Positions 30,783 to 57,825 of a stretch of DNA of 64,000 bases are shown here, in pieces (position 1 is the first letter of the stretch; every line of letters begins with the position of its first letter). The translations under genes were made by a program, and so were the position numbers. Source of the stretch: Nemertoderma westbladi (taxonomy: Eukaryota > Animalia > Xenacoelomorpha). The DNA is taken from NCBI GenBank assembly GCA_032718475.1, contig JAUCBJ010001932.1, forward strand, positions 2,108 through 66,107. Direction: 5' to 3'. Below the pieces are notes generated by a model. It saw only the letters and a list, made by a program, of their open reading frames with translations, was not told the DNA's origin and made no database searches.

Positions 30783-31002
30783 TTTCCCCCTGCTGCTAGC
30801 CTCTACTAGCTGTGTTCTCCCTCCGAGGTGGTTTGACCTCTCACCTCTCTCTGTGGCTTTAGGGCTTGTGTCGCCCCCCCCCCCCCAAAGTTGGTTATGA
30901 GGCGAGATTATTATTGGTAATCTCGTATCCCAAACTATATTGATAAAATGCCACTGGTCCCATTCTAAGGTGGATAGTGTAATCGAATTGAATCCGCTTA
31001 CA
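30783..31002 (-). repeat. Truncated 3' LTR of BEL element 2
   Basis: Matches ~38280-38496 with several substitutions; starts TGTAAGCGG on the minus strand right after the PPT. Confidence 0.85.
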
Positions 31003-31168
31003 CTCCCCCCAATGCTATCTTCCCGGTGAGAAGATAGCATCAAACTTAAGTGCGCTTCAATTCCGCTGGAACCCAACCTAATATCGGGTGTGGGGTGGAG
31101 TCTTTTCTCGGGGTCGGCTTTCCAGATCGACCCCCCCCGGGTGTGTTGTTGCTATCCCTCCTTGGTGC

Positions 31169-31443
31169 AAAAAAGTAAAGTAAAAGTAAATTTTCTTTGG
31201 CCGCTAGGCCAGGGATTACGCACAAAGTCTGACGGCTTATTTCCAGTACGGTCCCCCCAGAACTTTACTCCCCAGAGGAAACTCCAGTACTCATTTAGCT
31301 ACCACTTAAGGATGCAAGGCAGAGATGCGCCCTGGCTGGTCCCTTTAAAGCATTCGTGCCGAAACGAAAACTGCCCTGGCCCATGTGAGGATCGAACCCA
31401 CGACCTACGGGAGATGTGAATTCAATGCAACCACCACACCAAG
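31169..31443 (-). mobile_element. tRNA-derived SINE inserted in the 3' UTR of BEL element 2
   Basis: Minus strand has A box TGGTGTGGTGG, B box GGTTCGATCC, central gccttgcatcct..aaatgagtac (Meta-domain-like) and a (TTTAC)n tail. Confidence 0.7.
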
Positions 31444-32169
31444 GTGGAACCACGTTGTCCCTTATTCTCTCTCTCGCGGACCTCGTTGTCCCTTATTCTC
31501 TCTCTCACAGACCTCCTTGTCCCTTATTCTCTCTCCAGTCCCTTGGGACTCTTCCTTTCTCTCCGCTCGCTCCCCACACTTGAATTGCACTTATTCTACC
31601 TCCTCACGTGTCAACACCTCCTCTCCATACTTCCCCCGAATCCCCATTTTCGTTTTCATTCTCCATACACTTATTGGGTCCCACACATCTGCGCATCATG
31701 TTAGTGGGATCCGTCTAAGTCTTGTCCTGCCGTTCTAGTCAAATAGTCCCCAGTCCCAGTAGCTAATTGGAAAAAGGTTGTACTTGACTCTGGTATATAT
31801 ACGAGTTATATATATATAATAATTAATTATTATAATTATATAATATATATATTATATTATATGCTCGTCTACATGACGCGTCTTAACCCCCCCGCTCGGA
31901 GGTGATATGCCTCGTCACTCCCGGTCTTGCCCATTTTACTCTCTCTCCACCTTTCTCTTCTCTACTAACCTCTCCGCCATCACGAACTTTCCCGCGCTCA
32001 CCCAATTGGTGGGGCCTTACAAAGGCTCAATTTAAGTGAGTGCCGTTAAACAAGATGTTACTAGTTTCGTTCAGTAATGGCCTTCCTCCTACCTTGTTCT
32101 TTCTTTCGTGCCAATATTCCCCTAACTTTATTTTTATTTTTATTTTTTTGTGTTCCCCCCTGTCTGTGC

Positions 32170-32600
32170 TATTATCATATCTACCTTCCTACTTACTTAC
32201 GTGGCGCCTTCAGTGCCCACAACTTCTATGGTACTATGTACCCTACTACTATTACTACCCATGTACATATCCTATACTTCCTCTCACTACGTGGCGCTCT
32301 CAGTGCCCACAACTTCTAACTCCTACGGTACTATGTACCCTACTACTACTTCCATGGTATGCCTATATACCATACTCTCTACTCTCTTACTACGTGGCAC
32401 TCTCGGTGCCCACAACTTCTAACTCTCACGGTACTGTGTATCCTACTACTACTCTCTTGGTATGTCTATATACCACACTCCCTATTCTCTAACTTCTAAC
32501 TCTTACGGTACTATGTACCCTACTACTATTCTCATGGTATGTTAATATACCATGCTCCCTACTACTACTACTTAGTGCTACGTACTATCTACTACTATTA
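32170..32600. repeat. Degenerate tandem repeats downstream of integrase in BEL element 2
   Basis: Recurring tacgtggc..ctc.gtgcccacaacttcta...ggtactatgtaccctactact blocks. Confidence 0.8.
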
Positions 32601-35600
32601 CTTTCAACTATCTCGCTTCTTATTTTATTATTTGCTTATTATTTATTTTTTGTATTTTTTATGTGTGGGAAGGGCGTCTCGCCCTCATTCCCACCCCCTT
32701 CAGTCCAACATATTGGACGACTAAACTCTAAGGTGACCCTTCCAATAGGCAACACTTTCCCACAGCCCTCCTGTAGGTCTTCCTATCTTTGGCCCCTATC
32801 TTCCCTCCTATCCTCACTTCCACCAATCGGACTCTTCCGTCCCCATCGGGGTAAGTATCTACCACTCTCGCTAGTCTCCATTGGTTATTGATAATTGTGT
32901 CATCAGTGACGATTACCAAGTCTCCCTTCTTCAACTCTCTATTGGTATTTCTCCACTTACTCATCCTATGAAACGTCGGAAGATACTATTCTACCCATCT
33001 TCTCCAATACTCCAGACTTATTGCCTTGGCTACTTTCCAGCTTTGACGGGAATGTATGTCATCTGGATCTACACCCCGCATGTCAATCGTCGCCGTCCTC
33101 TCCATTAGCAAGTGTCCTGGTGTTAGCACGTCTAGTGATTCCGGGTAGTCATTCTCTGGATATAGCAGTCTGCTATTAATGATTCCCTCGCACTTGGCTA
33201 GCACCGTTCTTAATACGTCCTCAGTGACCATGTGGTTGTTCATAAGCTTGGTCATCAAACGCTGGGAACTTCTGACAAGCCTCTCTACACATCCTCGGCC
33301 ACCCAATTATCCACCAGCGTGCCGGCCAGCCAGCAGTCGACCAGCATCAATGTCGTGACTGATCGGCCACCTTCTCCCATCACCCTTACCGGTGAGAACC
33401 CCGAGTAGTACCGTTCCCCTTCTCTTCGCTCCTATGGTGCTTGTCGCCATCGTTTGACCTTTGCCTTGACCGAATCTTATTGGTGTCTCCTTACACTCTT
33501 CAACTCTGTGTCCTCCTACCACACATCGGTGACAAATTCCATTCTTATCAGAGAAGGCTATCCGATCTTGTTCGAGTAGCGCCTGCCAATGCTTACAGTC
33601 CATGGTCTTATGGGTTCCGTCTTTATGCAATTGACATTTGTATCCTGGGTTGTAACATTCCTTGTATAGCCCTACACGTATTGCACGTAGATTCACATCT
33701 ACCGGTTTAGTGTTTTGGTTATTTGGATATGGTAGACTGGGTGTGTTGGAATTATATTTGTTCGTGTTATTATTTTGACCCTGTTCGTGCCATGGTGTGG
33801 CCCTACTCCCAGCTATCTGTGGACTTGTAGTTCCCTGTGTCGCCGCGTATGGTAGCGACTGCCTCAACTTTGGTAAGGAATTTGCCGCACTATGTTCTGG
33901 TTTCGGCCTGTTGTATTCGGTCCTCGGCACCGTCCCCAGACTATCCTCGCTGTAGACTGGGTCCGTGATTAGTTCCGCCTCGTAATTGAGGAAGTTCGAC
34001 ATTTCCTCTAGGCCTGGTTCCACACCTTTCTTCTCCCAATCTTTCTCCACTTATTCCTCAGCCAGATCGGTAGTGCCTGCGCTATTGTAGTGATGTTATT
34101 CGATGCGTTGAGTTTGTAAGGCGCATCTAAGGTCTTTAGCACAATCAGCACCTTTTCGACTTTATACTCGAAAGTCATGATGCTGACAGGGTTATCCTAT
34201 AGTCCACCTGATGTTATTCCCCTCAAGGTTTGCCGGATGATCTTAGCAGGGTTTCCGAATTCCCTGTCTAGGGCCCGCCATGCAGTCGTGAATCCACCCT
34301 CGATACCCTGGTACTGCCTCACGATGTCGTATGCTGGCCCCCCTGTGTAAACTTGTAAGTATTTTAGGCACTCCGCCTGCATCAGATTCTTTATCAATGT
34401 CTCGTTACTGTACATATGCCGGAATTGCAGATATTCCTCCAGTTTGCTTCCATCGAATTTGAACGGCTCCACTGATGGCAGCTCGATCGTGGTCTTAAGC
34501 CCATCGATGAGTGTCACCATTCACATCGCTTGTACTTCTAGTGCGCTCGATGGATGCTGTACAGATTCCCCTGCTGCTGGGTGCGGTTCGCCCGTCAGGC
34601 CTGTCGACCTCCTTTGCGTCGGATATATCATTGGGGGTAGCGGCCCCCTCCATATCTCTGTATCGCACGATTTGTTTTGGTCCAAGGGGTTTGGGGTTTT
34701 TGTTCTTGGTTGAGTGTATTGTTGATATTGTAATGGTGGAATGTCACCCTGTCCCCCCCCCCCCCCCACCGGTGTTATATTTGGTATTGGGGTTGATATT
34801 ACCATGTTAGGGCCTAAACATCTATCGGCAATAGCTCCCCCATCCCCTGGGTATATGTTATATCCTTGCATATTATAGTCATACTGGTATGCAGGTACCG
34901 GTCTAGGCCTATCCACTCCTTGCCTATCTACCGGTATATATGCAGCGACTTCCGGATCTAATCCCATTGTCCGCGCTACCCTATCGCCTACACTATCTCT
35001 TCCAGCATGGCCTATAGTATGTGCAGTAAGGCCTACAGTATGTCCTGCAGTCTGCCTGTGTCCTTCCGGACCGAAGTTTATTCTTCTCGAATATTCCAAG
35101 AAGTCCTCCCCGCGACTACCGTACTCTCGATCAGCAGCTACATCCCATCGGGAAGTTTCTCTTCGATCCCCTCTCCTGTCCTCGTCCTCGTACCGGTACA
35201 TCCTGTACCCTTCTCCTGGTGTGTGGTATATCTCACCAGGTTGCGTCTCTCCGGGGCGACGGCAATCTCCCGGAGTTCGACCCCACTGACTCTCTAATTC
35301 CATCTCTGCTACCGACGGTTTACTGTCCGTCCTTCCTCTCCGGTTGCTCGTAGCAATGCTTCTTCTATTCTCTTCACTTCTTCTCTCTTCAGTGTAGCGA
35401 TCCCCTTTGTGAGATCGCGCTTCGACCTCCCGGATAAACTCCACTGTTCTTCTTCCGTCTTCCGACTGGGCTCGACATCTTGTCGCTTGCCCCCTCATGG
35501 CGCCAACCACCTCTCTCTCTCTACCCGGTTGGACGCTCCTGGGGATACTCGCAATCCCCTACTATTCTCTGTCGTTGGGTGCCGCGGTTCACCTAACTCG

Positions 35601-37840
35601 CCGCGCGCATTGTCCGCCAACACTTGTGGGACATTCTCTGCCCCCCCCCCTCTCGCCACTAATCTCTCGTGGTGGGGTTCCCGTAGCCCCCCCCCCCATT
35701 TGGCCTCTCTTACTTCGCTACCTCCCACTTCGCTTCTACGCCCCTCTCTAGTCGACGCACTATCTATACCCTGGCTGGGTCTACTCACCCCCGCCTCTCC
35801 CAGTGCGACTGCGTGGCCTTTCAGGCTCCCGGTGGGTTGACCTACCCCCCCTACTCCCTGTGCGACTGCGTGGCCTTGCAGGCTCTCGTTGGGTTGAATC
35901 ACCCCTACTACTCCCTGAGTAACTACGTGGCCTTGCAGGCTCTCACTGGCCGGACCACCTGTCTCCCCTATGTTTGTATTAATTGCACCGTTATTAATAA
36001 CATTATTTTGGTTAATTTCCTCTGGGTTATTATCTAACGTAATATTGTTACCTAAATTATTTAAATTATTTTGTTCAGAATTGGGGTTATTATTTTGATT
36101 ATTTTACATCTTTAATTTAGAATTATTATTTGGATTATTTTGCACATTTAAATTAGTATTATTATTTGGATTATTCTGCACATTTCAATTAGAATAATTA
36201 ATTCTAAAAATATTAAAATATTATTTCCTGCAAGAAAGGTTTGAATAGGGTTGTCTAATATGGTACTATTAATATTAATTCTTTCTAACGTATTATTATT
36301 ACCCCCCCCCCCCCCGCCCGTACGGTTACACCAGTCCTGGGTCTGTCGTCCAGCACCTGTAAGTGGGGTATTAACAAACGTTTCCATTACTTCTGGCTTC
36401 TCGTAAATACTACCCAAACCAGCCTCTCTCTCTGATAATCCCAACTTTGCCAGTTCTAACTGGCGCTTAGGCTTCACCTGGTATTGCATGAGCCCCCTCA
36501 ACCGGGTATGCATATCATCCCGCATACGCTTTCCCGATGTCTCTCTCTCTCTCTATCCTCTCGCAAACTTTGGTTCTCTAATTCTGTCTCCCTCGCCTCC
36601 CGCTCTCTACGCTTGTTTTCTATTCTCGCCTCCCGCTCTTTACGTTCGTTCTCTACTCTCATCTCCCACTCTCTACGTTCGTTCTCTACTCTCGCCTCCC
36701 GCTCTCTATGTTCGTTTGTTTCCCTCTCTACTCTCGCTGTCTCTTTCGCTTCTCGCTCTTTGTGCTCTTTGCGCTCTTTCTCTACTCTCGCCTCTCGCTC
36801 CTCTCGCTCCTCGCGCTCGTTTATCTCTCTCTCTCCTCCCGCTCCCTGCAGTTTCTCGCCACCCTCTCAGCCCTCTCTCTACATTCCCTTGCTAACTCTA
36901 TCTCTCTCTCTAATAATGCGATTCCCTCGTCTAGTTGCCTCTCCAACTCCTTCTGATCCAGCGCCACAATGTCTAGTTGACACCCCAGATCTATCTCTAA
37001 CACCCTTCTTGCTTTTGCGGAGGATGTAGCGGACTTATCGGTCGTGACGGACTCCCGTCGCCTCTCTGTCACACTAACTTTCCCCCGCTTTCTCGGGTTC
37101 TCGCTTACCTATGACACCGAATCCTCGGGGTTAACCTTGGGTTCGCCGTCGTGCGGGTCCGCCTATCCCACTAACTTAATTCCCCTTGCATCCACTAAGT
37201 AAGGCCCTACGTACACTATGCCTGGCTCCATTACCCCGGACCGCCACAATTCAAACAGTTCCGTGGCGACCCCCCTTGCTCTCTCACTCCCCAGTTCTCC
37301 CTGTCCGAAATGGACCAAATAACGAAAATGTTTATTCGACTCACCTAGACTCTGTTATAGTTTAGGCTGGTCTACCTTTCTCCCCTCCTTGGCCTCTTTG
37401 AGTAGTTTCTTGGTGGCGTTGTAGGCCCGTCGTAGCCGATTACTCGTCCCGACGTCCTCTTCATCGACTCTACCTTCTCTCCTCGTCCGGCATCGTACCG
37501 GCAGCCCCACTGTCGCCGTTCCGGTGGGCCGTCCGTCGCCCTCAGCCGGTGACTGGCCAGCAACTTCGGTACTCCGACCGCCGTCGTCGTCGTGCGTCGA
37601 CCGGTCTCCCTCTCTCCTTCGTAGTTGACGGCCGCCCTCCGCTTGGGCTACCGGATCATCCCTCGTCGGCGAATCCGGCGTGGCAGGCCGATACCATCTC
37701 GTCGTGGCCTCTCGGATCATTTGGTTGGTGTCGTCCGGGGTCCGCAGCGGCATTCTCTCCCCCTCTGATAATCGGGGCTACTGATTGCTCATCTTTACTT
37801 TCCTTGGCAGTCACAGTTTGTTAGTTGGTCAGTTTATGAC

Positions 37841-38496
37841 TGTGACAGGATCATAGATCCCGACAGGGTTAGATATGTACGCGTCACCATTTGCTGGAGC
37901 AGCTGTGTTATAGTCACTTTGGCCGAAGGCCGTCGGGAAAATAAGAGAGTTTGTGTTTCTCAATATTAATCTTCCGAAATGATAATAGCACAGGACTATG
38001 TATGTAATGAATATCACAATACAAAATAACAGCAGAAAATACAACACAGATATTAATCGGTTATGTTGGTAATGGTGACGGTCATAAACTATGATCGGTC
38101 TGTAACTCTGTAACTAATGAACTGACCGGTAAATCAGTAGTACAGAATAATATATGATTGATACAAACATATATTGGTTTCACCTCTTACTTTACTTGGC
38201 CCTCTGTACCCAGTGGATGCTTTCCTATCTCTAATCACATGCTTCCATCCCCGCTATTGGCTAATACACTAATTGTCACTTTCCCCCTGCCGCTAGCCTA
38301 TACTAGCTCTGTTCTCCCTCCGAGGTGGTTTGACCTCTCACCTTTCTCTGTAGCTTTAGGGCTTGTGCCACCCACCTCCCAAAGTTGGTTATGAGGCGAG
38401 ATTATTATTGGTAATCTCGTATCCCCAACTATATTGATAAAATGCCACTGTTCCCATTCTAACGTGGATAGTGTAATCGAATTGAATCCGCTTACA
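37841..38496 (-). repeat. 5' LTR of BEL element 2 (656 bp)
   Basis: Minus strand TGTAAGC...GATCCTGTCACA; end motif shared with the element 1 LTR (GATCCCGTCACA). Confidence 0.85.
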
Positions 38497-43213: not shown

Positions 43214-43218
43214 GTTTG

Positions 43219-43759
43219 TGTTAGCTTATTCAATCCCGCTAACACCCCATAAAGTTATAAGCCGATAAGCAATATTGGGAGCCACGAGATTGGGTAATTA
43301 ACCAACTCGTGGCATCCCAATAAGAATGGGAAGGAGAAGCACACAATGAGGGTCAGGGGCCAAACCCCTAACCCAGAGAGAATAGGTGGAGTGAACGGGA
43401 ACACTCCAAAGGGCGCCAACAAGGGTATCAACCAATCAGAGGGGGGAAAGGCATCGATTAGGTAGAGTAACAAGGCCAACCGTGCAATATAGCCACTTGG
43501 CAGTAATAATACCAATTCAGTTATCTCAGTGCAATACCGGTGCTAGATTAGGTTACAATAGTTTTAGATAGGGAAGGACCGGGACTTTAGTTACCGTATC
43601 CCGCCTTCCATATACGACAATATTATATCTATATCTATATCTATATCTGCATATCATATTATATACGACAAACAGTACAAGCTCATTTACTCTTTATACA
43701 CGGCGGGGACGCGTGAACTAAAACCGGATAAACCGGGATTCCTCTTGGATCCCGTCACA
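43219..43759 (+). repeat. 5' LTR of BEL element 1 (541 bp)
   Basis: Differs from the 3' LTR by two visible substitutions and one 6-bp microsatellite indel. Confidence 0.97.
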
Positions 43760-43768
43760 GTAACTAAA
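43760..43768 (+). promoter_or_regulatory. Non-tRNA primer-binding site (GTAACTAAA), complementary to LTR 43586-43594
   Basis: Directly follows the LTR terminal CA; no TGG; reverse complement TTTAGTTAC lies inside the LTR. Confidence 0.7.
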
Positions 43769-43826
43769 TCAGCTGCCGCCCTAGATAAACTCTGTAACCA
43801 CCAGCCACCAAATCTGCAGGGGAAAG

Positions 43827-46131
43827 ATGAGTCAGTCGGGTGAGATAACACCGACGCGGACCCCGGACGAAGAGCTAACGATCCGCGAGGCCGCAACCAG
43901 GCGATATAGGCCCACGACGCCGGACCCATCGATAACGGGTCATCCGGCAGTTCAGGACGAGGGGGGCCTGGAACCTGAGGTCGAGCCGAGAGGAAGAGAG
44001 AGCGAGACGGAGGGAGAAGGAGACGAGTCGACACGGGACGGGGGTCGACGCACCGATGTCGCCGGCCAGCCACAGGCCGAGGGCGACGAGCGGCCCACCG
44101 AAACGGCGACGGTGGGGCCGACGGTGCGGCCCCGGACGCAGAGAGACGAAGGAGATATCGGTACCGATGTCGCCGGCCAGCTACAGGCCGAGGGCGACGA
44201 ACGGCCCACCGGAACGGCGACGGTGGGGCCGCCGGTACGACGTCCAACCCGGAGAGACGGACGAGGGGTCGGCGACGAGGACGTCGGGGTTTCTGAGCGA
44301 CTTCGACGGGCCTACAACGCGACCTGGAGACTACTAGAGGAGGCCAGAAAGGGGAAAACGATAGACGAGGTAAAACTGAAGTCAGGACTAGGTAAGTCGG
44401 ACAGACATTTATACTATCTAATGCATTTCGGGCAGAGAGAATTGGCCGAGGAGAGAGCGAGAAAGGTTGCCGAGGAACTGTATGACTCATGGCGGCATGG
44501 GGGTATACAACCTAGTGTAGTGTACATAGGGCCATATATAATCGATGCCCGGGGTATAAAATTAATGGGTTGGAACAGACCTGAAGGGGGCGAATCCGAG
44601 GTTAACCCCGAGGATTCGGCCTCGTCGGTCGGAGGGAGTTCCGGGAGGAGGGGGAAAGTTAGTAGATCGGGAAGGCGGAGGGAGTCCGTCGCAACCGATA
44701 AGTCTGCTACATCCTCCGCGAAAGAAAGACTGGTGAGAGAGGCAGGTGCCGCGTACCGTCTCGAGCTGATAGAGCAAGGTCAGAGGGAAATGGATAAACG
44801 GCTAGAGGAGGGGAGAATGCGGCTAGAGAGGGAAGCGGCATTGATTAGAGAAACCGGAGAGAGGGCCGAAAGGGCTTTGAGAGGCCTTAGGGAGTGTGAG
44901 GAAAAGGAGGAAAAGGAGTGTAGGGAACGTGAGGCGAGAGAGGAAAGGGAACGCAAAGAGCGCGAGGCGGAACGCAAGGAGCATGAGGCAAGGGAGGAAA
45001 AGGAACGCAAAGAGCGTGAGGCGGAACGCAAGGAGCATGAGGCGAGAAAGGAAAGTGAACGTAAGGAGCGTGAAGCGAGGCGAAGGGAGAGTGCTAGGAA
45101 AGTAGTAGAGTTGGCTGAGCGGGACACGCGGGAGTGTGAGAGGAGAATGGCAGGAGCCGAGCGACACCATGATGAATTAAAGAGATGCCAAAGTGAGCTT
45201 GGGGAACATAGGGTTAGACGCGCGCACGAGCTGCAACTGGTGCGGGCGGGGGCGTCTGAGAGCGAGACAGGCTCGAGTATTTTAGAGGAGCCAGGGGCCG
45301 TGGATACATTTATTAATACCACACTTACAGGGACCGCACGACAGACCCAAAACTGGTGTGACCGTACGGGCGGGGGGGGGGGGGGGGGGGGTAATAATGA
45401 TAATGGTACAGTAGACGTGGTTAATATTAATAGTACCGTATGGGATAATTCTAATCAAACCTTTATTGCAGGAAATACTTTGCCTAGTGGTAGTAATTTA
45501 AATTTAAATCAGAACAATCTTAATATTAATGTAGAAAATAATCCTAATATTAATGTAGCTACGCAAAATAATCCAAATAATCAAAATAATAATAATTCAA
45601 ATAATTTAATTAATGAGCCAAGCCCGAATTTACAAGATAATTCAAATGATTTTATTTCGAACGAACAAGTTAATTCCGTTCCCAATACGGGACACGGGTG
45701 CTATTAATGTAAACACGTCGGGCGTGTATGGCCAGACAGATGGGGCCCAGGTAGGCCACGTAGTTGGTAGGCAGGGAGTGGCTGGGTTGGATGGACCCAG
45801 CGAGGGCCTGGTAGGCCACGTAGTTGGTAGGCAGGGAGTGGCTGGGTTGGATGGACCCAGCGAGGGCCTGGTAGGCCGCATAGTCGGTAGGCAGGGAGCA
45901 GAGGGCCTGGTAGGCCACGCAATAGCAGAGAGAGAGGCGGGGGTGAATAGACCCGACCGCGGTAGGGTTGATGTGTCGACTAGAGAGGGATATAGTAGCG
46001 GGATGAGAGATAGCGAAGTTAGATGTGGCGAGTGGGGGGGGGGGGGGGGGGGGGCTACGAGAGCCCCACAACAGCGAGTTAGCGGCGAAAGGGGGGGGGG
46101 CAGAGAGTGTCCCACAGCCGTCAGCGGATAA
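43827..46131 (+). pseudogene. Long low-complexity / coiled-coil N-terminal gag extension, frameshifted
   Basis: ORFs 43827-45707 and 45613-46131. Element 2 reads through the poly-G junction in one frame (35495-35902), so these pieces belong to a single gag-pol ORF. Confidence 0.75.
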
Positions 46132-49100
46132 TGCGAGGGCCGAAATAGGTAAACCGCAACAACCGGCGACGGAAAGTAATAGGGGGATTGCGAGTATCCC
46201 CAGCGGCGTGCGACCGAGCAGAGAGAGACAGGTTGACGTCGTAAGAGGGCGGACGAAGCGTCGAGCCCGATCCGAAGAGGGAAGAAGAACAGTGGGGTTT
46301 AACCGGGAGGTCGACGAGAGATCTCACGGGCGGGAATACTCCACTGAAAGGAGAAGAAGAGAAGACAGTAGTAGAAGTATCGCCGCGAACGATAGAAGAG
46401 CGAGGACGGATAGCGAGCCGTCGGTAGTCGAGATGAGAACAGAGAGTCAGTGGGGTCGGACTCCGGGAGATTGCCATCGCCCCGGAGAGACGCGACCCGG
46501 CGAGGCGCACTACGCGCCGAGAGAGGGGTACGCGATGTACCGGTACGAAGATGAGAACAGTAGAGAGGGGGGTCGAAGAGAAACTTTCCGACGGAATATA
46601 CCTACCGATCGAGAATACGGTAGCCGCGGGGAGGACTACTCGAGAAGGATAAACTTCGATCCCGAGCGACACATGCAGACTGTAGGACATACTGTAGGCC
46701 TTACTACACATACCGTAGGCCATACTGAGAGAGGCAATGTAGGCGATAGGATAGCGTGGACAACGGGATTAAACCCGGAAGTCGCGGAATACATACCGGC
46801 GGGTAGGCCAGAAGCTGATAGGCCTATACCGGTACCAGTACAACAGTATGACTACAGCATGCAGGGACATAACATATACCCAGGGGAGGGGGGAATTATT
46901 GCGGATAGGTGCATGGGCCCCAACATATTAACATCAACCCCAGTACCAAACATACCGGTGGGGGGGGGGGGACAGGGTGACATTCCCCCATCACAATATC
47001 AACAATATACCCCGATAGGAGCAAGAACAACGAGACCCTTGGATGAGAATAGGTCGTGTGATACAGACATATGGAGGGGGCCGCTACCCCCGATGACATA
47101 CACAAGTCAGAGAAAGTCAAGAAATAGGACAGACGGAACGCACCAGACAGGGGAAACTATACAGCATCCGTCGAACCCATTGGAAGCACAGGCGATGGGG
47201 ATGGCCACGTTGATCGACGCGTTGAAAACGAGGATCGAGCTACCACCCGTGGAACCATTCAAATTCGATGGGAGCAGGCCGGAAGAATATCTACAGTTTC
47301 GGCGCATGTATAGTAACGAAATACTAACAAAAAACTTGACGCAGGCGGAGTGCCTAAAGTATCTGCAAGTGTACACGGGAGGCCCAGCATACGATATCGT
47401 GAGGCAATATCAAGGAATAGAGGGCGGCTTCACGACAGCATGGCGGGCACTGGATAGGGAATACAGGCACCCGGCCAAGATCATCAGGCAGACGCTGAGA
47501 GGCATAACATCGGGTGGCCTACAGGATAATCCCGTTAGCATTAAGACGTTCGCTAACAAAGTCGAAAAGGCGCTAATCGTGCTGAAGACGCTAGACGCGC
47601 CGTACGAGCTCAATGCGTCCAACAACATCACCACGATAGCGCAGGCACTACCAAACTGGCTGCGCAACAAGTGGAGGAAAATCGCCTTCTCCACTCGAGA
47701 TAAGAAGGGTGCGGAACCGGGTTTAGAAGAAATGTCAAACTTCTTAAACTACGAGGCTGAGCTAATAACTGACCCAGTCTATAGCGAAGACAGCCTGGGA
47801 AAGGGACCGAAGACAGAGCACAACACATCAAACGCATTACCGAGACTCAGGCAATCATTGCCATATGCAGCGACGCAGGGGACCGCAAGTCCACAGCTAG
47901 CCGAGGATAAGACAACACCATGGAACGGACAGGGAAACAATAACAACACGAATAAACATAACCCCAGTACGTCCAGTAGGCTAAATCCAAACAATAAGAA
48001 TAGTAGGGACTTTGGTACAAACGCAACTGCGATACGCAATGCACTGTATAAAGAGGGCTACGACCCAAAGAGCAAATGCCAGCTACACGCAAATGCGCTT
48101 CATCAAACCATGAACTGCAGGTACTGGCAGGCGCTACCTAGGCAGGATCAGATAGATTATGCGTTCAGCAATAAAATCTGCTCGCGATGTGTAATGAGTG
48201 GACATAGAGCAAGGGAGTGCAAGGAGAAGCCAATAAAATTTGGTCAAAAGAGAGGCCAAACGATGGCGACCAGCACAGTAGGGGCGAAGGAGAGGGGAAC
48301 GGTGTTACTTGGAGTATTACCAGTGCAAGTTATCGGGGAAGGCAATCGATCAGTAACAACACTAATGCTGGTTGATAGTGGAGCTGCCTTCACATTAGTC
48401 GAGGAATGGGTGGCCGAAGAGATAGGATTGAGAACGAGGCCAAGCAGGATGGCGGTAACAACCATCTCTAGCAAAGATGAGATCCTGGAGATGAGAACAG
48501 GACGGTGCGCAATTGCAGCAATGGCACCAGGATGCGACTATGGGGCAACCATCGACCCCATCCAAGTGATAGAGTCAATTAATATTAATGCCAGGCGACC
48601 AACCAACATCGAGGTCGAGCAGTATAAATTCCTGGACGACATTGACTTCTCAATCCCAGACGTGGACGTTAGGAAGGTGTCCATCATAGTGGGCATGGAC
48701 TGCCCAACGGCCCACGAAAGAATGCAAACGGTCTTCGGCGAAGACAAGCAGAGCGACCCGGTGGCCATATTAACACCATTCGGGTGGACGCTGAGTGGTC
48801 CAATTAAGAGCAAGATACCATTTAGGATGTCGGAGACATCAGGATGCATGTTCGCGGGTACTATGCAGGAAATGGGTGACGAGGGAGCAGAGGAGCAGCT
48901 TAAAAGACTGCTCGGACAGGATTTCGAGGGACTGAAAGAAACCGGAGTCGGGACCTCAGTAGAAGACAAGCAGGCTTTACAAAGCGTGGAGGAATCAATG
49001 ACATGCGATGAGGGACGGTATACTATAGGAATGGTATGGAAACTACCGAAGATACCGCTGCCCGACAATAGGGGGATGGTACTCACGAGACTCCGCAAAC

Positions 49101-50611
49101 TGAAACAAACACTAAAACGGAGCCCCGAGAAGAATGAGTACATCCACAGAACAATTAAGAAGTACGTCGAGAAAGGATGGGCCGTGGAGTTACCGGTCGA
49201 CGAGCCGAACACAGATAGGACATATTACCTGCCACTGCACGTGGCTTTAGATCCAAAGAAAGGTAAACTAAGGATGGTAGTCGACGCATCGGCAAAGACC
49301 GACGGAAAGTGCTTAAACGACTACCTGTTAGAAGGCCCAAACATATACAATTCGGGCATAGAGGTGTTACTTAGATTTAGAAATGGGAAACACGCCTTCA
49401 CGTGTGACATAGAAGGCATGTTCAACCAAGTCCGTGTAACGGAAGAAGATAGCGACAGTCAGCGCTTCTTATGGTATAACGGCGAGGAAGAACCGTCGAT
49501 AATACCGGCATATAAGATGGTAGTACAGAACATGGGGGCCAAGTCGTCTTCATTTACGACGACTATGGCAGTGAGAGACACAGTAAAGGGGAAGGAAGAT
49601 AGATACAGCAGTAGGGCCATCGATATGATTCGACGCGGCTTCTACGTAGACGACGGAATGGAGTCTGGAAATACGGTTAAGGAGATACTGGATACAGGGC
49701 GCGAGGTTCGCGACATCCTAAAGGGATCCGGCTTTAACCTGACCAAATTCCAATCCAGTTCGGAAGAATTTATCAAAGCCATAGAGGACAGGAAACCAGA
49801 ATCGACCATGGATAATCCCACAACAGCCAAAGGGCAGGACATGGCGATTAAGAGAACGGAATCCCAGCAGAAGGCATTGGGAATCGTGTGGGATAGAGAG
49901 ACAGACGAACTGAAGTATCAGCTGAGCCAGGAGGGCGCAGACATCCACACGAAGAGGGGTTATGTATCGTATATAGCAAGGATATACGATCCCCTAGGCC
50001 TAGCATCCCCATTATTAGTCACGGGGAAACAGATACTCAAGAGAGTATACAAATTGAAAGATGAGTGGGACGTAGAGGTACCAGAGGAAATCAAGAAACA
50101 GTGGAGCAAGTTGACAGGAGACTTGGGGAAGATGGGAACATACAACATGCCACGGGTGTATTTCCCGGATGGGAACATGACGAATCTGGACCTACACATG
50201 TTCTCCGACGCGTCATTGGAAGCGTACGGAGCGGCACTCTACTTAGTACAACGAGAGGGGGCTCATAAGCCAAGACTAGCCTTTAGCAAAGCAAAGTCAA
50301 CGCCGCCAGATTCAGCATCAGTTCCTAAGTTAGAATTGACAGCTGCGAGACTAGGAGTAAGAGCCACAGCCTACCTAGTGGATACTATTCCCAACATAGT
50401 GGAGACACACTACTGGACGGATTCCATGGTAGTGCTTGGTTGGCTACACAACGAAAGGACGATATACCCGACATTCGTCGCGAATAGAGTGGACGAAATA
50501 AGGGCGAGTACAGAACTGGAAAGGTGGCACTACTGCCCAACAGACGACAACCCAGCGGACTTGTTGTCGAGGGGCGTGGTACGCCACACTTTCTTGAAGA
50601 AGGAAGTATAG
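46025..50611 (+). CDS. BEL/Pao gag-pol (gag core, zinc knuckles, protease, RT, RNase H)
   Basis: FDGS..EYLQF, C..C....H....C, LVDSGA, YYLPLH..KLRMVVDAS, FYVDD, LHMFSDAS, VPKLEL, DNPADLLSRG. Ends at a premature TAG (EV*WQHGPRFL). Confidence 0.93.
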   Translation: MASGGGGGGGLREPHNSELAAKGGGAESVPQPSADNARAEIGKPQQPATESNRGIASIPSGVRPSRERQVDVVRGRTKRRARSEEGRRTVGFNREVDERSHGREYSTERRRREDSSRSIAANDRRARTDSEPSVVEMRTESQWGRTPGDCHRPGETRPGEAHYAPREGYAMYRYEDENSREGGRRETFRRNIPTDREYGSRGEDYSRRINFDPERHMQTVGHTVGLTTHTVGHTERGNVGDRIAWTTGLNPEVAEYIPAGRPEADRPIPVPVQQYDYSMQGHNIYPGEGGIIADRCMGPNILTSTPVPNIPVGGGGQGDIPPSQYQQYTPIGARTTRPLDENRSCDTDIWRGPLPPMTYTSQRKSRNRTDGTHQTGETIQHPSNPLEAQAMGMATLIDALKTRIELPPVEPFKFDGSRPEEYLQFRRMYSNEILTKNLTQAECLKYLQVYTGGPAYDIVRQYQGIEGGFTTAWRALDREYRHPAKIIRQTLRGITSGGLQDNPVSIKTFANKVEKALIVLKTLDAPYELNASNNITTIAQALPNWLRNKWRKIAFSTRDKKGAEPGLEEMSNFLNYEAELITDPVYSEDSLGKGPKTEHNTSNALPRLRQSLPYAATQGTASPQLAEDKTTPWNGQGNNNNTNKHNPSTSSRLNPNNKNSRDFGTNATAIRNALYKEGYDPKSKCQLHANALHQTMNCRYWQALPRQDQIDYAFSNKICSRCVMSGHRARECKEKPIKFGQKRGQTMATSTVGAKERGTVLLGVLPVQVIGEGNRSVTTLMLVDSGAAFTLVEEWVAEEIGLRTRPSRMAVTTISSKDEILEMRTGRCAIAAMAPGCDYGATIDPIQVIESININARRPTNIEVEQYKFLDDIDFSIPDVDVRKVSIIVGMDCPTAHERMQTVFGEDKQSDPVAILTPFGWTLSGPIKSKIPFRMSETSGCMFAGTMQEMGDEGAEEQLKRLLGQDFEGLKETGVGTSVEDKQALQSVEESMTCDEGRYTIGMVWKLPKIPLPDNRGMVLTRLRKLKQTLKRSPEKNEYIHRTIKKYVEKGWAVELPVDEPNTDRTYYLPLHVALDPKKGKLRMVVDASAKTDGKCLNDYLLEGPNIYNSGIEVLLRFRNGKHAFTCDIEGMFNQVRVTEEDSDSQRFLWYNGEEEPSIIPAYKMVVQNMGAKSSSFTTTMAVRDTVKGKEDRYSSRAIDMIRRGFYVDDGMESGNTVKEILDTGREVRDILKGSGFNLTKFQSSSEEFIKAIEDRKPESTMDNPTTAKGQDMAIKRTESQQKALGIVWDRETDELKYQLSQEGADIHTKRGYVSYIARIYDPLGLASPLLVTGKQILKRVYKLKDEWDVEVPEEIKKQWSKLTGDLGKMGTYNMPRVYFPDGNMTNLDLHMFSDASLEAYGAALYLVQREGAHKPRLAFSKAKSTPPDSASVPKLELTAARLGVRATAYLVDTIPNIVETHYWTDSMVVLGWLHNERTIYPTFVANRVDEIRASTELERWHYCPTDDNPADLLSRGVVRHTFLKKEV

Positions 50612-52282
50612 TGGCAGCATGGGCCACGATTTCTGAGCGATAAGGAGGCCTGGCCGCCGATGAGAAAGGTGGACCCGGGCTCAGAAGTAGTGTCAGAGGG
50701 AGAAGAGGGAGATTCAGAGGGAGAAGAGATATACTCCCAGATGGTGAGGGAGATTAGGGACGTGCAACCAGGACGGGAACTGTGCGATAACCCGACGGAT
50801 AAACTCCTCAGCTACAGTTCTAGTTGGTATAAGACCAAGAAACTAGTGGCATACTGGAGAGCCTTCGGGAACTTCCTTGGGGGAGTTGGCAAGGACAAGA
50901 AGATCAGGACAACCATAGATCTGGAAGGAGCGGCCAAGGCAGTGATCCGCTATGAACAACGGAGGAACTATGGCGACGAGGTGGAACGCGTCGGTAACCA
51001 ACAGCACCTCCGACGGGACAGCGAGCTGATTACGCTGTCGCCATAACTCAATGACGACGGGATTCTAGTAATGAATTCTAGGGTGGGATACAACAACAGC
51101 ATAGTCGTACCACCGAAACCCATCATCATTCCTACAGGATCGCCAATAGTCCACCAGATCATATGGGACTCCCACAAATTGATATTGCACGGGGGCACCA
51201 ACCGAACCCTCACAGAGATAAGGAGGACCTATTGGGTCAAACAACTGAGGAAGAAGGTAAAAGCGGTAGTGGGGCAGTGCCAGACCTGCCGACGAGCGAA
51301 GAAGGAGCGAGCCGTACAGGAGATGGCGCCACTACCGGCGAGTAGGGTAAGACAGCACGACCCGCCATTTACGCATTGCGGTGTGGACATGTTCGGGCCG
51401 ATAAAGATCAAAGTGATGCGACACACGGAGAAACGCTATGGCATTATCTTCGTATGCAACAATACGCGGGCGGTAGGGATAGAACTCACCCAAGATGCAA
51501 CTGCATCAGCATTCATTAACGCCTTAGAAAGGTTTAGGGACCGCAAAGGTGGGACGATCGCAGTGATATACAGCGACAACGGCACCAACTTTGTGGGCGC
51601 AGAGAGTGAGATGGCAGAGGCCTTGGACATCTTGGAGGGGGAAGAAGTCAGGGCAGCCATGAGACGACGACAAGTAAAGTGGGAGAGAAGGACGCCGTAT
51701 GCACCACATACACTAGGATGCGTCGAGAGACTGGTGGGCAGTTCAAAGCGTCTAATGACGAAGCTGATGAACACCCTCATGGTCACTGAGGACGTCTTAC
51801 GGACAGTACTTGCGAAGTGCGAGGGGATCATTAATAGCAGACCGCTATATCCGGAGAATGATGACCCTGAGTCATTAGATGTGCTGACGCCTAGCCATTT
51901 CCTGATGGAAAGGCCAGCGACCATCGATATGCGGGGTGTAGACCCAGATGACATACACTCCCGCCAAAGTTGGAAAGTCGCAAAGGCAATAAGCGCAGAG
52001 TATTGGAGGAGGTGGGTCGAGGAATACCTACCCACACTCCATAAACGAAGCAAGTGGAGGAAGTCAAACAGGGAGTTAAGAGAGGGAGATCTCGTAATCG
52101 TTACGGATGATACTATCATCAACAACCAATGGCGGTTGGCGAGAGTTGTAGGCACCTACTCCGACGAGGACGGAAGAGTCCGATCGGTAGAAGTGCGGAT
52201 AGGTGGAAAGATAGGTGCGAAGGACAGAAAAACCTACAGGAGAGCTGTAGGCAAATGCTGTCTATTAGAAGGGGCACCTTAG
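50612..52282 (+). CDS. BEL/Pao integrase portion, same frame, with one more internal stop at 51044-51046
   Basis: H..LHGG..CQTC, GVDMFGP, SDNGTNFVG, GCVERLV, NSRPL, LTPSHFL, YWRRW..EYL, WRLARV. Confidence 0.93.
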
Positions 52283-52429
52283 AAGAGTTAGAGAAAAGTT
52301 TAGTCGTCCAAGTTTTGGACTGAGGGGGGTGGGATTGAGGGCGAGACGCCCTTCCCACAAACAAAATAGAAAATAAAATAAAATAAATAATAGTACATGC
52401 TAGGTACGCAGTTAGTAGGCAGAAGTTAG

Positions 52430-53050
52430 TTAAGAGGTACATAGTACCTGGTCAGTTAGTTAGTTAGAAGGTACGTAGTACCTAGTTAGTTAGAAGGTAC
52501 GTAGTACCTAGTTAGTTAGTTAGTTAGAAGGTACGTAGTACCTAGTTAGTTAGTTAGTTAGAAGGTACGTAGTACCTAGTTAGTTAGTTAGTTAGTTAGA
52601 AGGTATGTAGTACCTAGTTAGTTAGAGAGTTAGAAGGTACGTAGTACTTAGTTAGTTAGAGAGTTAGAAGGTACGTAGTACCTAGTTAGTTAGTTAGTTA
52701 GAAGGTACGTAGTACCTAGTTAGTTAGAGAGTTAGAGGGTACGTAGTACCGATAGTTAGTTAGAGAGTTAGAAGGTACGTAGTACCTAGTTAGTTAGTTA
52801 GTTAGAAGGTACGTAGTACCTAGTTAGTTAGAGAGTTAGAGGGTACGTAGTACCGATAGTTAGTTAGAGAGTTAGAGGGTACGTAAGTACCGCTAGTTAG
52901 TTAGAGAGTTAGAGGGTACGTAGTACCGATAGTTAGTTAGAGAGTTAGAGGGTACGTAGTACCGATAGTTAGTTAGAGAGTTAGAGGGTACGTAAGTACC
53001 ATTAGTTAGAAGAGTTAGAGTTAGAGGGTACGTAGTACCGTTAGTTAGAA
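52430..53050. repeat. Minisatellite (gtacgtagtacc + (tagt)n) between integrase and the extra ORF
   Basis: About 19 variable 25-41 bp units. Confidence 0.92.
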
Positions 53051-53476
53051 GAGAGAGAGTAAGAGGTAAAAGGGGATATAGATATAGATATTAGTTAGCA
53101 GTTAGTAGAGAGAGGGGGGCATATGAGTACAGCTGGGTAAGTCGTGTGGCCACACGACGCATACTGCTGCACTGCATAGACCCACAGAGTAGGCCAGAAT
53201 GTGGATTAGAGAATAGAATAATCCATAGGCAGTAGTAAGTAGTAGGACAGTAGAATCAAATTAAATAGATAAATAAATAGAATAGGGCTGAAAGTTGTAA
53301 AATAGTGGCAACACAAGGGAAGTTATTCTAGAACATAATAAGAAATTGTAAATTACGCTCATTTACTAGCTTCAAAATTAATTAGGAATAATTTAGGTTA
53401 AAAGGCGCAGTTAAGTACCTAAGGGACCTACGGGACGCCGTCGCTGGACAACGCGATCTTCCAACACTTCCACTAC

Positions 53477-55744
53477 GTGGTGAAAGGGGACGAGGCGAAG
53501 TTCGGGATTCCGAAGTACCCGAGGGAATCACCGAGGAAGGACTGGAAGAGATTCATAGAGTCCGTCAACAGAGGAGGATATATGATCCTAGATGATGAGG
53601 GAACCGTGGAAGACGAGGCGGGTTCGAGACGAGGAACTGCGGGGTCGGCCAGGACCATACTCCTACATTTGGCCGCGCCAAATGGGGACATCTTCTTATT
53701 CGACCTAGGGATGTATGGGAAGAAGGACGGGCCGAAATTAGACCGGTTACCGAAAGCGGTACAAGTCTTAGTAAGAGAGAAGTCGACGACGAAAGTGGGA
53801 TCGGCGATTCGCGAGGACACGGAGAGGATCATCGGTCCAGACGCCACCAACCTCCTGGATATGCAGAAAGTCTTTATGGCTATGACGGCACCGGATGGGT
53901 TGGGGGTAGTCGAAAACACAGGCCAATGCGGGGCGGTGGCAATGGGCCAATTATTGGGGCTCGTATGCCACAAACCGATGGACTGGGGGAAGTTTAGGGA
54001 AGAATACGGAGCAGAACTAGCGAACTCGCTAAAGTGGGGAGCGAGTCCGGGAAAGCAGGAGGTATATCAGTTCCGCAGGGGAGCGATAAAGGTATATCAG
54101 AAGCGATATATCCTGCAGGAGGACTGGATGATGATAAGTTTGCTTAACTTATTCATGACCGTGGTTATCGAGAGGGAACCAGGGGCATTTTTGTTATCGG
54201 GATCACCCCTAAGCTACAGGAGAGCCTTTGTGTACTATAACAGCCGACATCTGGTAGACGGGGAGACAGATACACCGTATCAGAGATGGGAGCAGCTAGA
54301 GACGGATAGACGAGAAGCAAAGCGACTGGAAGAAGTTGCTAGACGGGAGAGGATAGAAGCAGAGGAGAGGGAAGAGGAGGACAGGACACAGAGTTACGGC
54401 TTCGAGGAACAGGCAGGCCTAGACGAACTTCATTGGACTTCATCATGGAGTTCGGGGGAGTCTCTAGGGCGAGAATTGGGATGGACGGTGGGATCGCCGA
54501 AACAGTCGACGTCGGGGTTGCAAACGATGCCCATACCAGCGGGCGCCGAGGGCGACCAACCGCCAAGGAAGTTAAGGGAGCTGGAGGGATGGAGAGCTAC
54601 GGGCGAGAGCCAAGGCGGGAAGGGACATAGTGGATCCATCGGGATACCGGGGTTGGAGACACTGCCAGAAGAAGAGGAGGACGACGACGACGAGTTCGGA
54701 GAGATGCCGCCCATCGAGAGGATAGGCCACTCGGACACGGACTGGGTTGGCGGAAGGGTGGTGACGGCCAGTGGGGCGAAGGCCTTCTGGAACAGATCCG
54801 GCAAGCAGACCTGGGTGCACGAGGACCCGGCGATGTATTTCGCGGGGAGCACCATCAGGTTGGGCGAACAACCGGGGACGGCACCACGGGTAGTATTCGG
54901 GGAGACGATGCCCGAGAGGGGCGGAGAGATCGACGTAGATAGAGAGACCAACGTAGAGAAGTTCGCCTACCAGCGACTCCACAGACCGCGGAGATCGCTC
55001 GGGACGAAAGACGAGGTGGGACGGGAGACATTGGTACTCGGCTGCGACTACTGTGGGAGACAGACCCATCGGGAAAGCAGCTGCCTATACCGGTTCCAAA
55101 AGGGAACCTTTTGTCTCTACTGCAGAGAACCAAGCCACAGGATGGGGGCGTGTCCACGGTTGCACAACCGATGTCCAAAGTGCCACTTTCGGGGACACTA
55201 TGGACGCGAGTGCGACTGGATGAACGACGAGGAGAAGTTCACAAGATTCGAGGAGTGGGCCGACGTCGGGGCCATGACGCGCCAGCGCATGAAGGCCCAG
55301 GAGTTCAAGTGGGCTTTCTTCCTTATCAATCAGGAGACTCACATGGAAATCATAAAGCGGAGGCTACTGTTTACCTACCAAGAGGTAGCAACGGCGGCGT
55401 CGTACGCTGGAGTGATGAACACGCAAAGGTATTTGGACAGGTGGACGCCAGAGAACCGAAGGGAGTTTAGGGGTTTCTTGGCGGAGCACGTACCAAAGGC
55501 AATGAAAATGATCCTATGGGACGCCACCAGAGGGAGACAACCGGGCCACTCTGAGGGGCCACCGGCGAAGCGATATCGGGCACTAATAACACCAGCGCCC
55601 AAGGAGCCAACGACCGGGATCAGCAGGGAGGTGGCGGCGAAGGTCCGAAAGCAGAAAGCGGATGATGCCAGAGGAATGGTGATAACCAAGAAACGACCCA
55701 GGGAAGAGGACGCCAGGGGGAACTATCCCCAGAGGAACAGATAG
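53477..55744 (+). CDS. Extra ORF of BEL element 1: putative DEDDy 3'-5' exonuclease, coiled coil and three CCHC knuckles
   Basis: ILDDEG (ExoI), LLHLA..DIFLFDL, LPKAVQVLVREKSTTKVGSAIRED (ExoII), NLLDMQ, QKRYILQED (ExoIII-like); CX2CX4HX4C x3 at 55043-55213; uninterrupted 755 codons; first ATG at 53582. Confidence 0.75.
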   Translation: MVKGDEAKFGIPKYPRESPRKDWKRFIESVNRGGYMILDDEGTVEDEAGSRRGTAGSARTILLHLAAPNGDIFLFDLGMYGKKDGPKLDRLPKAVQVLVREKSTTKVGSAIREDTERIIGPDATNLLDMQKVFMAMTAPDGLGVVENTGQCGAVAMGQLLGLVCHKPMDWGKFREEYGAELANSLKWGASPGKQEVYQFRRGAIKVYQKRYILQEDWMMISLLNLFMTVVIEREPGAFLLSGSPLSYRRAFVYYNSRHLVDGETDTPYQRWEQLETDRREAKRLEEVARRERIEAEEREEEDRTQSYGFEEQAGLDELHWTSSWSSGESLGRELGWTVGSPKQSTSGLQTMPIPAGAEGDQPPRKLRELEGWRATGESQGGKGHSGSIGIPGLETLPEEEEDDDDEFGEMPPIERIGHSDTDWVGGRVVTASGAKAFWNRSGKQTWVHEDPAMYFAGSTIRLGEQPGTAPRVVFGETMPERGGEIDVDRETNVEKFAYQRLHRPRRSLGTKDEVGRETLVLGCDYCGRQTHRESSCLYRFQKGTFCLYCREPSHRMGACPRLHNRCPKCHFRGHYGRECDWMNDEEKFTRFEEWADVGAMTRQRMKAQEFKWAFFLINQETHMEIIKRRLLFTYQEVATAASYAGVMNTQRYLDRWTPENRREFRGFLAEHVPKAMKMILWDATRGRQPGHSEGPPAKRYRALITPAPKEPTTGISREVAAKVRKQKADDARGMVITKKRPREEDARGNYPQRNR

Positions 55745-56422
55745 GTTCCCAGAGTCGAGGGAGAGAGACTGGGACTTGGACCTGGTGCGCCTGGAAGGCG
55801 CCGCGTGGGACGTACGAACTATTAAGTACAAGTTTAATTAATGCAAATAATCATATAAGTGCAATTTGTATGTACGTATGTAGTAATTAGTAATCTACGA
55901 ATATATACGCTGGGAGTAAGTACTATAGTCATACAACCTTTCTCAATTAGCTACTGGGACTGTGGGACAACTGACTATGGCACTATGGACGAGACACCAG
56001 ACAATTTCACACTTCTTGAGTGCGACGGCACAAAAGGGGGGGGGGGGGGAGATTCGTCAGAAGGGATGAGGTAGTCAGAGTAGGGTTGAGGGACGGAGTA
56101 GTAGGTGCGGAGTGCGGAGAGAGTGCGGACGCAATTCTAGTGTGGGGGGGGGAGAATAAGAGGCTGAGTGAGGGACGAGGAGGTCCGAGTGTATGGGAGA
56201 GTTAGGATGAGAGTGAAGAAGAGATAGGGCGGAAGTGTTGGGGAAACAAAAGTTGCGTGAGAGGTGAACGCAACCGGCCCGACATGAGACGCCAGGCACA
56301 CAGGGTAGCGTTATCATACCCATAGGGGGCGGCCTGGAAAGCCGGCTCCGAGAGAAAAGAATTCCACCCCACACCCGATACTAGATCGGGATCCAGCGGG
56401 ATTGTAGCGCACTTTTTGGTTG

Positions 56423-56460
56423 ATGCTATCTTCTTACCGGGAAGATAGCATGGGGGGGAG
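56423..56460 (+). promoter_or_regulatory. 11-bp hairpin abutting the polypurine tract
   Basis: ATGCTATCTTC-ttaccgg-GAAGATAGCAT, then GGGGGGGAG, then the LTR. Confidence 0.8.
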
Positions 56461-56995
56461 TGTTAGCTTATTCAATCCCGCTAACACCCCATAAAGTTAT
56501 AAGCCGATAAGCAATATTGGGAGCCACGAGATTGGGTAATTAACCAACTCGTGGCATCCCAATAAGAATGGGAAGGAGAAGCACACAATGAGGGTCAGGG
56601 GCCAAACCCCTAACCCAGAGAGAATAGGTGGAGTGAACGGGAACACTCCAAAGGGCGCCAACAAGGGTATCAACCAATCAGAGGGGGGAAAGGCATCGAT
56701 TAGGTAGAGTAACAAGGCCAACCGTGCAATATAGCCACTTGGCAGTAATAATACCAATTCAGTTATCTCAGTGCAATACCGGTGCTAGATTAGGTTACAA
56801 TAGTTTTAGATAGGGAAGGACCGGGGCTTTAGTTACCGTATCCCGCCTTCCATATACGAAAATATTATATCTATATCTATATCTGCATATCATATTATAT
56901 ACGACAAACAGTACAAGCTCATTTACTCTTTATACACGGCGGGGACGCGTGAACTAAAACCGGATAAACCGGGATTCCTCTTGGATCCCGTCACA
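56461..56995 (+). repeat. 3' LTR of BEL element 1 (535 bp)
   Basis: Direct repeat of 43219-43759. Confidence 0.97.
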
Positions 56996-57000
56996 GTTTG

Positions 57001-57225: not shown

Positions 57226-57790
57226 TTCGACTCTTCCGACCACCTCTTGGGCCGTGTATAAAAGCGACTATTCGACCCAGTGAACTGAGAGAAAGCCGCA
57301 AGTGGTCGGCTGTTCGGCTTAGATATATCATCATAGGTCTACAATAGACTATATGGAGGGTGGGTAAAAGTCGCAAAACTTTATTTGTAGACTATAGGTG
57401 ATCCGACTTTGCCGACCAATTCGACTCTTCCGACCACCCTTGTGCCTGTATATGATATATCTAAACTGACCAGCTGAACACTTGCTACTTACTCGCAGTT
57501 CACTGGGTCGAAGAGGCGTCTATTGTAGACCTATGATGATATATGTAATCCGAGCTGCCGACCACTTGCGACTTACCCTAAGTTTACTGGGTCGAATAGA
57601 GTTGCCTTATAGACGGCCCAAGAGGTGGTCGGAAGAGTCGATTTGGTCAGCAAAGTCGGCTCCACCTATAGTTTCTATATAAAGTTTTGCAACTTTTAGC
57701 GATCCTCATACAGTAGGGTCTATTGTAGGCCTATGATGGATGATATATGTAAGCCGAACTGCCGACCACTTGCGACTTACCCTCAATTCA
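57226..57790. repeat. Foldback of ~195-bp tandem units (two arms in opposite orientation)
   Basis: 57226-57350 is the reverse complement of ~57518-57643; the unit recurs at 57226/57419 and 57518/57718. Confidence 0.8.
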
Positions 57791-57825
57791 CACTATAGAA
57801 TTGTTAAAGATAATATGTTATAGAA

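Follow-up and report, generated by a model that had tools for sequence, protein, structure and literature searches.

The window analysed here is a stretch of 64,000 nt, in which coordinates are counted from the first letter, and it consists of a patchwork of transposons and satellites. Its forward strand carries a BEL/Pao retrotransposon, element 1, with the following features:

43219-56995, forward strand: element 1, BEL/Pao, spanning 13.8 kb
43214..43218, forward strand: left target-site duplication GTTTG (right copy at 56996-57000)
43219..43759, forward strand: 5' LTR, 541 bp, TGT...ACA
43785..45707, forward strand: first reading frame, ATG at 43827, low-complexity and charged
46007..50611, forward strand: Gag (DUF1759), protease, RT and RNase H (Peptidase_A17 / Pao), in-frame stop at the end
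51047..52282, forward strand: integrase (Integrase_H2C2, rve, DUF5641), with two in-frame stops between RT-RNase H and integrase
53423..55744, forward strand: extra frame of 773 codons between integrase and 3' LTR, N-terminal part 3'-5' exonuclease-like
56301..56460, forward strand: structured 3' untranslated stretch, kept in element 2, ending in the polypurine tract
56461..56995, forward strand: 3' LTR, 535 bp

Element 1 is young yet broken. Its LTRs are two substitutions and one 6-nt microsatellite indel apart, the 5-bp GTTTG borders both ends, and the frames at 43785 and 46007 are in different phase. Pfam searches returned PF05380 (E 1e-39), PF03564 and PF18701, with the integrase last in order, and PF05380 is present in all of the best 120 protein matches to the element. 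Gag and RT-RNase H are of Pao type, the domain order is gypsy-like, and the LTRs have TG...CA ends, a target-site duplication and a polypurine tract (56452-56460, forward strand) that adjoins the 3' LTR with zero spacer, all as in BEL/Pao; the domains are thus not the Ty3/gypsy chromovirus RT and integrase of the Tf1/sushi group. The first reading frame, for which a Pfam search gave no match, is 45-54% identical to its counterpart in element 2. The extra frame had no Pfam match, and a sequence search over proteins 425-1353 residues long found no homologue; its atlas scores were 0.94 to a cluster in which 50% of the members carry PF01612 and 0.95 to unnamed clusters, and it displays three zinc-knuckle-like motifs near residues 540-600, with weak PDB matches to CCHC proteins. 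The DEDDy-type ORF3 of the bdelloid elements Juno and Vesta is likewise exonuclease-like and located after pol and before the 3' LTR (PMC5408684); the consulted parts of that paper do not describe these elements as BEL/Pao, and the likeness to element 1 is one of frame type and position.

The reverse strand carries a diverged relative of element 1:

38496 to about 30783, reverse strand: element 2
37841..38496, reverse strand: 5' LTR of element 2, 656 bp
30783..37762, reverse strand: body of element 2, frameshifted, most of protease-RT-RNase H missing

The 3' LTR of element 2 stops after about 220 bp (30783-31002). Identity to element 1 is 62-67% from Gag to the start of the protease and 88% in the integrase tail. 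Both elements hold short-repeat arrays after the integrase (52390-53070, forward strand; 32190-32640, reverse strand). Elsewhere in the window, a long 24/29-bp satellite array with strong GC skew (15750-24450 and 61240-62130) sits in a larger repeat present in two copies (14066-25548 and 58074-63271), and an imperfect palindrome of 510 bp (57280-57791) is 73% self-complementary. The forward strand further contains a Mutator-like transposase frame (39838-41529), a non-LTR element with endonuclease and RT (8394-13750) and another RT frame (59166-60725).

The sequence-only reading had proposed that the lineage of element 1 primes reverse transcription with its own leader RNA, on the basis of five segments in and after the 5' LTR, each of which we found again in its place. 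These, the U5 segment discussed below and their counterparts in element 2 are as follows:

43586..43594, forward strand: predicted self-primer segment of element 1, exact complement of the PBS, 3' end AC
43595..43605, forward strand: 5' arm of helix 2, directly after the primer 3' end
43702..43711, forward strand: 3' arm of helix 2
43713..43722, forward strand: PBS mimic in U5, able to pair with the primer segment in place of the PBS (element 2 counterpart 37874-37881)
43734..43754, forward strand: terminal U5 hairpin
43760..43768, forward strand: putative non-tRNA primer-binding site (PBS), beginning GT, no spacer from the LTR
38081..38090, reverse strand: predicted self-primer segment of element 2, 10 nt
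37882..38080, reverse strand: helix 2 of element 2, arms 38071-38080 and 37882-37891
37831..37862, reverse strand: terminal hairpin (37846-37862) and PBS (37831-37840) of element 2

In neither element does a TGG occur in the stretch from the LTR end to the first ATG. As had been proposed, the site that takes its place has an exact complement within the LTR. This measures 9 nt for element 1 and 10 nt for element 2, and in both the site has offset 0 from the LTR end, so that the last base of the primer faces the first base past the LTR. Dinucleotide shuffles of the LTR matched this complement in 8 of 5000 cases for each element. The missing TGG and the complement are directly seen in the DNA, and so are compensatory differences between the two elements: in register, four of the nine primer-PBS pairs are changed on both sides, and of the ten pairs of helix 2 four are changed on both sides and one on one side. 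An equally good reading of the primer-PBS differences is an insertion of 4 nt in element 2, matched on the two strands of its helix. The claim that all three helices recur in element 2 with different sequences holds for these two helices and not for the hairpin, whose sequence is largely the same in both elements and thus speaks of conservation rather than covariation. The pairings themselves are present in element 1, with one bulged base and one G-U pair in helix 2 and one bulge in the hairpin. ARAGORN and Rfam gave no match on the window, which therefore contains no recognisable element-encoded tRNA-like primer.

Folding predictions bore out the proposed three-helix junction in one element and not clearly in the other. 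For element 2, an RNA that starts at the primer is predicted to adopt this junction (z -5.2; 0 of 200 shuffles). In element 1, the minimum-energy and centroid folds prefer a rival helix, in which the primer segment pairs with 43713-43722 in U5 and not with the PBS (z -1.8), and this PBS mimic extends helix 2. The 9-bp core duplex of element 1 is weak (-7.8 kcal/mol), and its primer-PBS pairing probability is about 0.6 with short 3' context and 0.00-0.03 in other contexts. When the RNA of element 2 starts upstream, the probability is 0.01-0.03 and the U5 mimic wins.

We collected relatives by an alignment-based metagenome scan, of which the best 80 of the 542 matches listed were kept, giving 78 BEL/Pao loci with 30-39% identity in RT-RNase H. 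A firm LTR end was available in 11 loci, 9 from the divergence of two LTRs and 2 from a contig ending at ACA; the end in L078 was placed by hand 10 nt past the alignment end. L031 (blurred end) and L065 (incomplete LTR, same family as L057) were left out of this set, and most of the remaining loci have too little LTR to read. A self-complement of 10-16 nt is present in 10 of the 11 firm relatives, which supports self-priming of the lineage beyond the two elements on which the proposal had been built. The complement is contiguous (10-11 nt) in two of them, L010 and L040, and in the other eight it is seen solely after removal of a predicted GT-AG intron of 71-345 nt, with a GTAAG donor, chosen by the script itself, in five of the eight. 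Shuffles equalled the complement scores of firm relatives in 0-7 of 150 cases. When all 256 boundary pairs were compared, GT/AG was best with 8 of 11 relatives and the next best pair reached 4. Mock PBSs shifted by 8, 12 and 16 nt scored in 1, 0 and 0 of 13 elements, as against 12 of 13 at the true place. The signature is a real, conserved feature.

The PBS of the relatives starts 0-4 nt past the LTR end, and it begins GT in all 12 unbiased cases (10 relatives and the two window elements). Positions 3-9 show three or four pair types over 21 sequences and track the LTR partner, and a constant GT start with such variation behind it is unlike the pattern expected from a shared tRNA. TGG is missing within 4 nt of the LTR end in 9 of the 11 firm relatives; the exceptions are L078, where a TGG site stands without any complement, and L007, with TGG 1 nt after the LTR plus a spliced complement. 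Nine further families picked by eye (7 spliced, 2 contiguous) are consistent with this, as an addition that is not an unbiased count, and the near-identical copies L015, L017, L045, L053, L054 and L065 stand outside the count. Across the relatives the counted introns span 71-426 nt. L056 equals L058 on both flanks of the 168-nt intron of L058, over the stretch compared, and lacks exactly that intron (L056 near 1-60 and in the 3' LTR); its DNA thus holds the exact junction predicted for spliced L058, and such a precise absence is the trace expected from reverse transcription of spliced RNA. The GT start, the AC end of the primer and, in most families, a helix right behind the primer are common traits. 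A distal second helix lengthening the primer was found in 4 of 18 relatives at p<=0.1 (combined p 0.015), weak support for which it is excluded from our argument, and the symmetry of PBS offset and polypurine-tract spacer, when tabulated, was not clear-cut. By eye, a splice-split complement also appears in two more families, L001 (leader before 1164) and L019 (leader before 2523); the PBS of L001 lies 5 nt past ACA and was hence missed by the scan. The LTRs of L016, L040 and L056 end TATA, not CA.

The named clades of the BEL/Pao superfamily are Pao, BEL, Tas, Suzu, Sinbad, Dan and Flow. In a FastTree phylogeny of 98 RT-RNase H rows, taken from loci whose best segment has at least 400 residues and with L021 left out, element 1 forms a long branch outside all signature-bearing loci, a placement that is unreliable, and spliced and contiguous forms are interleaved. 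Close relatives were sought in metagenomes (single protein), viral contigs (alignment; 3' motif) and prokaryote genomes, and none were found, the best protein identity being 30-39%. With this identity and the outside branch of element 1, the relatives are to be taken as analogues in the signature and not as sisters.

The position of the primer in the transcript was approached through sequence motifs in the LTR:

43488..43494, forward strand: TATA-like box of element 1, a motif match only, 31 nt upstream of the A in the initiator-like motif
43517..43522, forward strand: TCAGTT initiator-like motif of element 1, candidate start 43519
43552..43590, forward strand: candidate GT-AG micro-intron of element 1, 39 nt, weak

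A TATA-like box 31 nt before TCAGTT lies upstream of the primer in both window LTRs, and the pairs of the two elements fall at non-matching places in their pairwise alignment. Initiator-like motifs sit at the primer and also 37-67 nt upstream of it; TAGTT within the primer resembles the initiator consensus. The RNA may begin at the primer, or about 40-75 nt before it. It had been predicted that transcription starts at about 43585-43589, so that the primer would be the extreme 5' end of an unspliced transcript as in Tf1; this candidate start is doubtful, because 8 of 10 relatives have an intron within the complement and because TATA and TCAGTT lie upstream in both window elements. The rival U5 helix preferred in the predicted fold of element 1, and the missing canonical poly(A) signal behind the primer in both elements, add to the doubt. 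An upstream start-site signature common to the relatives was searched for and not found. AATAAA or ATTAAA lies between the primer and the LTR end in 17 of 19 relatives, which places the primer in R there; neither window LTR has such a motif after the primer.

Contiguous self-priming of the window elements by their own leader RNA is, in our judgement, probable, and that the primer derives from the element in one way or another is very probable. We infer transcription across the primer segment, the fold, the cut and the enzyme as follows. The LTR-internal segment 43586-43594 would pair with the nine bases after the LTR end within a three-helix junction, in which helix 2 would stack behind the primer-PBS helix and the U5 hairpin would shorten the path to the LTR end. 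The RNase H of the element, the probable enzyme by analogy with Tf1, would cut behind the terminal AC and free a 3'-OH primer, and copying would start at the last LTR base. The strong-stop DNA would then span U5 and R down to 43595 and transfer to the 3' R. Were an intron spliced in the cap-proximal copy and kept in the 3' copy, the primer would exist at the 5' end alone, and the U5 mimic may play a similar role in intron-less forms. On the simplest reading, the contiguous primer of the window elements would be the intron-less form of a mostly splice-dependent system. A wider version of this view could as easily hold as fail: a broad part of BEL/Pao would be self-primed, mostly through an LTR intron removed by the spliceosome, with the window elements as a deep branch in which the intron has been lost or measures 34-39 nt and a U5 decoy helix restrains the primer.

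An unlikely variant is that splicing completes the primer in the window elements as well, by removal of the 39-nt GT-AG micro-intron (43552-43590) in element 1 and one of 34 nt in element 2, which would lengthen the duplex and disfavour the U5 helix. At the position of the acceptor in the relatives, each of the two complements reads AG and then T. Removal of the introns lifts the primer-PBS probability to 0.94 and 0.95 and strengthens the duplex from -11.2 to -16.8 and from -11.9 to -15.6 kcal/mol, although unspliced element 1 reaches -17.6 kcal/mol when given more upstream sequence. For introns of 25-60 nt, shuffles did equally well in 1 of 300 cases (element 1) and 20 of 300 (element 2); however, this range was picked post hoc, a range of 25-150 nt gives 15 and 108 of 300, and an alternative null gives 52 and 36 of 300. 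The donors are weak and at non-aligned positions, that of element 2 overlapping the initiator-like motif, the acceptors are purine-rich, each duplex carries a bulge, and 34-39 nt compares with 71-426 nt for the introns counted in the relatives. Window positions 1-15700 and the long frames elsewhere yielded no host gene that would give intron sizes.

We regard it as somewhat less likely still that the LTR-leader pairing is a regulatory or packaging switch between PBS and U5 mimic while priming is done by an RNA of the host, for instance a fragment from inside a tRNA. A second helix for the primer segment is indeed predicted in both elements. Fragment priming holds the PBS constant across families, whereas positions 3-9 of the PBS follow their LTR partner over the 21 sequences; moreover, the pairing runs up to the LTR end or to within 2-4 nt of it, the place at which DNA synthesis has to start. 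Half-tRNA priming without TGG does occur in Copia lineages (PMC6317226).

Improbable, to our mind, is priming in trans, in which a short LTR transcript, 3'-trimmed, possibly by the exonuclease-like extra protein, anneals to another genome. Element 1 does have the 3'-5' exonuclease-like frame, and pairing in trans would sidestep the rival intramolecular fold. Against it, element 2 shows no similarity to this frame, helix 2 right behind the primer end would block trimming, and nothing links the frame, whose predicted fold has a pLDDT of 32, to priming. Finally, complementarity by chance or as a by-product of local duplication is highly improbable and largely refuted: the sequence upstream of the primer looks part-duplicated in both LTRs and the given 9-mer has two chance occurrences elsewhere in the 64-kb window, but against this stand the 8 of 5000 shuffles in each of two elements and the 12 of 13 elements that score at the true place versus 0-1 of 13 for moved controls.

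Self-priming with the element's own RNA is established for Tf1, where the 11 initial bases anneal to the PBS and are separated from base 12 by an RNase H cut (PMC7175516); PMC7175516 and PMC4600332 deal with Tf1 and Tj1. Like Tf1/Tf2 of Schizosaccharomyces pombe and the Tf1/sushi group including Tj1, the window elements have no tRNA site and a PBS of about 10 nt that is complementary to LTR-derived sequence and adjoins the LTR end, with extra helices around it and a predicted cut at the primer 3' end. They differ in that Tf1/sushi elements are Ty3/gypsy and the window elements have Pao-type domains, hence another superfamily, and in that the primer here may not be the 5' end of the RNA; moreover, a GT-AG intron splits the primer in 8 of 10 relatives, which the consulted parts of the Tf1 papers do not describe. 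The sequence-only reading named Tf1/sushi as the self-priming group, which is incomplete: in the TAR lineage of plant Ty1/copia (Houba, Osr-1) and in Tcn1 chromoviruses it is predicted from LTR-PBS complementarity alone (PMC6317226). The prediction for the window elements is of the same kind, whereas TAR and Tcn1 belong to other superfamilies, and an intron-split primer is not described for them in the consulted parts of that paper.

The ICTV profile of BEL/Pao (Belpaoviridae, Semotivirus) describes a PBS of 18 nt that serves tRNA-Arg or tRNA-Gly, in a genome of 4.2-10 kb (PMC8742986). Element 1 agrees with it in Peptidase_A17, DUF1759, DUF5641, the protease-RT-RNase H-integrase order, TG...CA LTRs of 0.5-0.7 kb and the polypurine tract, and departs from what the consulted parts of the profile describe in the absence of a tRNA-Arg/Gly PBS, its 13.8 kb and the exonuclease-like extra frame. 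Since 9 of 11 firm relatives also have no TGG near the LTR end, we read the PBS criterion as too narrow. PBS or tRNA are not mentioned in the consulted parts of the BEL/Pao and Sinbad surveys PMC3118150 and PMC554778. The literature check called for by the sequence-only reading, made on titles and the starts of abstracts with subscription journals, Repbase Reports and supplements outside its scope, returned no report of self-priming in BEL/Pao, so that a known mechanism would here appear in a new superfamily. A spliced primer in BEL/Pao was not reported in the titles and abstract starts either, and a prior remark may exist in subscription journals or Repbase Reports.

The replication of BEL/Pao is called 'poorly understood' by the ICTV (PMC8742986), and which of self-priming and tRNA priming came first in LTR elements is a question raised in PMC3601003. 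If self-priming in BEL/Pao is true, tRNA-free initiation would have arisen one more time, probably independently, which would bear on this order. A splice-made primer, if real, would join the first step in the replication of retrotransposons to the host's RNA processing in a new way, and splicing would then license the replication of most such families. Annotation tools that require a tRNA PBS would overlook or misplace such elements.

A second conserved stretch lies at the 3' end. The 150 nt before the polypurine tract (56301-56460, forward strand; 31003-31160, reverse strand) are 84% identical between the two elements, far above their LTRs. This conserved 3' structure contains no PBS complement. 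In both elements the stretch is predicted to take a similar multi-branch fold with paired changes, in which the polypurine tract itself is base-paired, and it is possibly a packaging or plus-strand priming signal.
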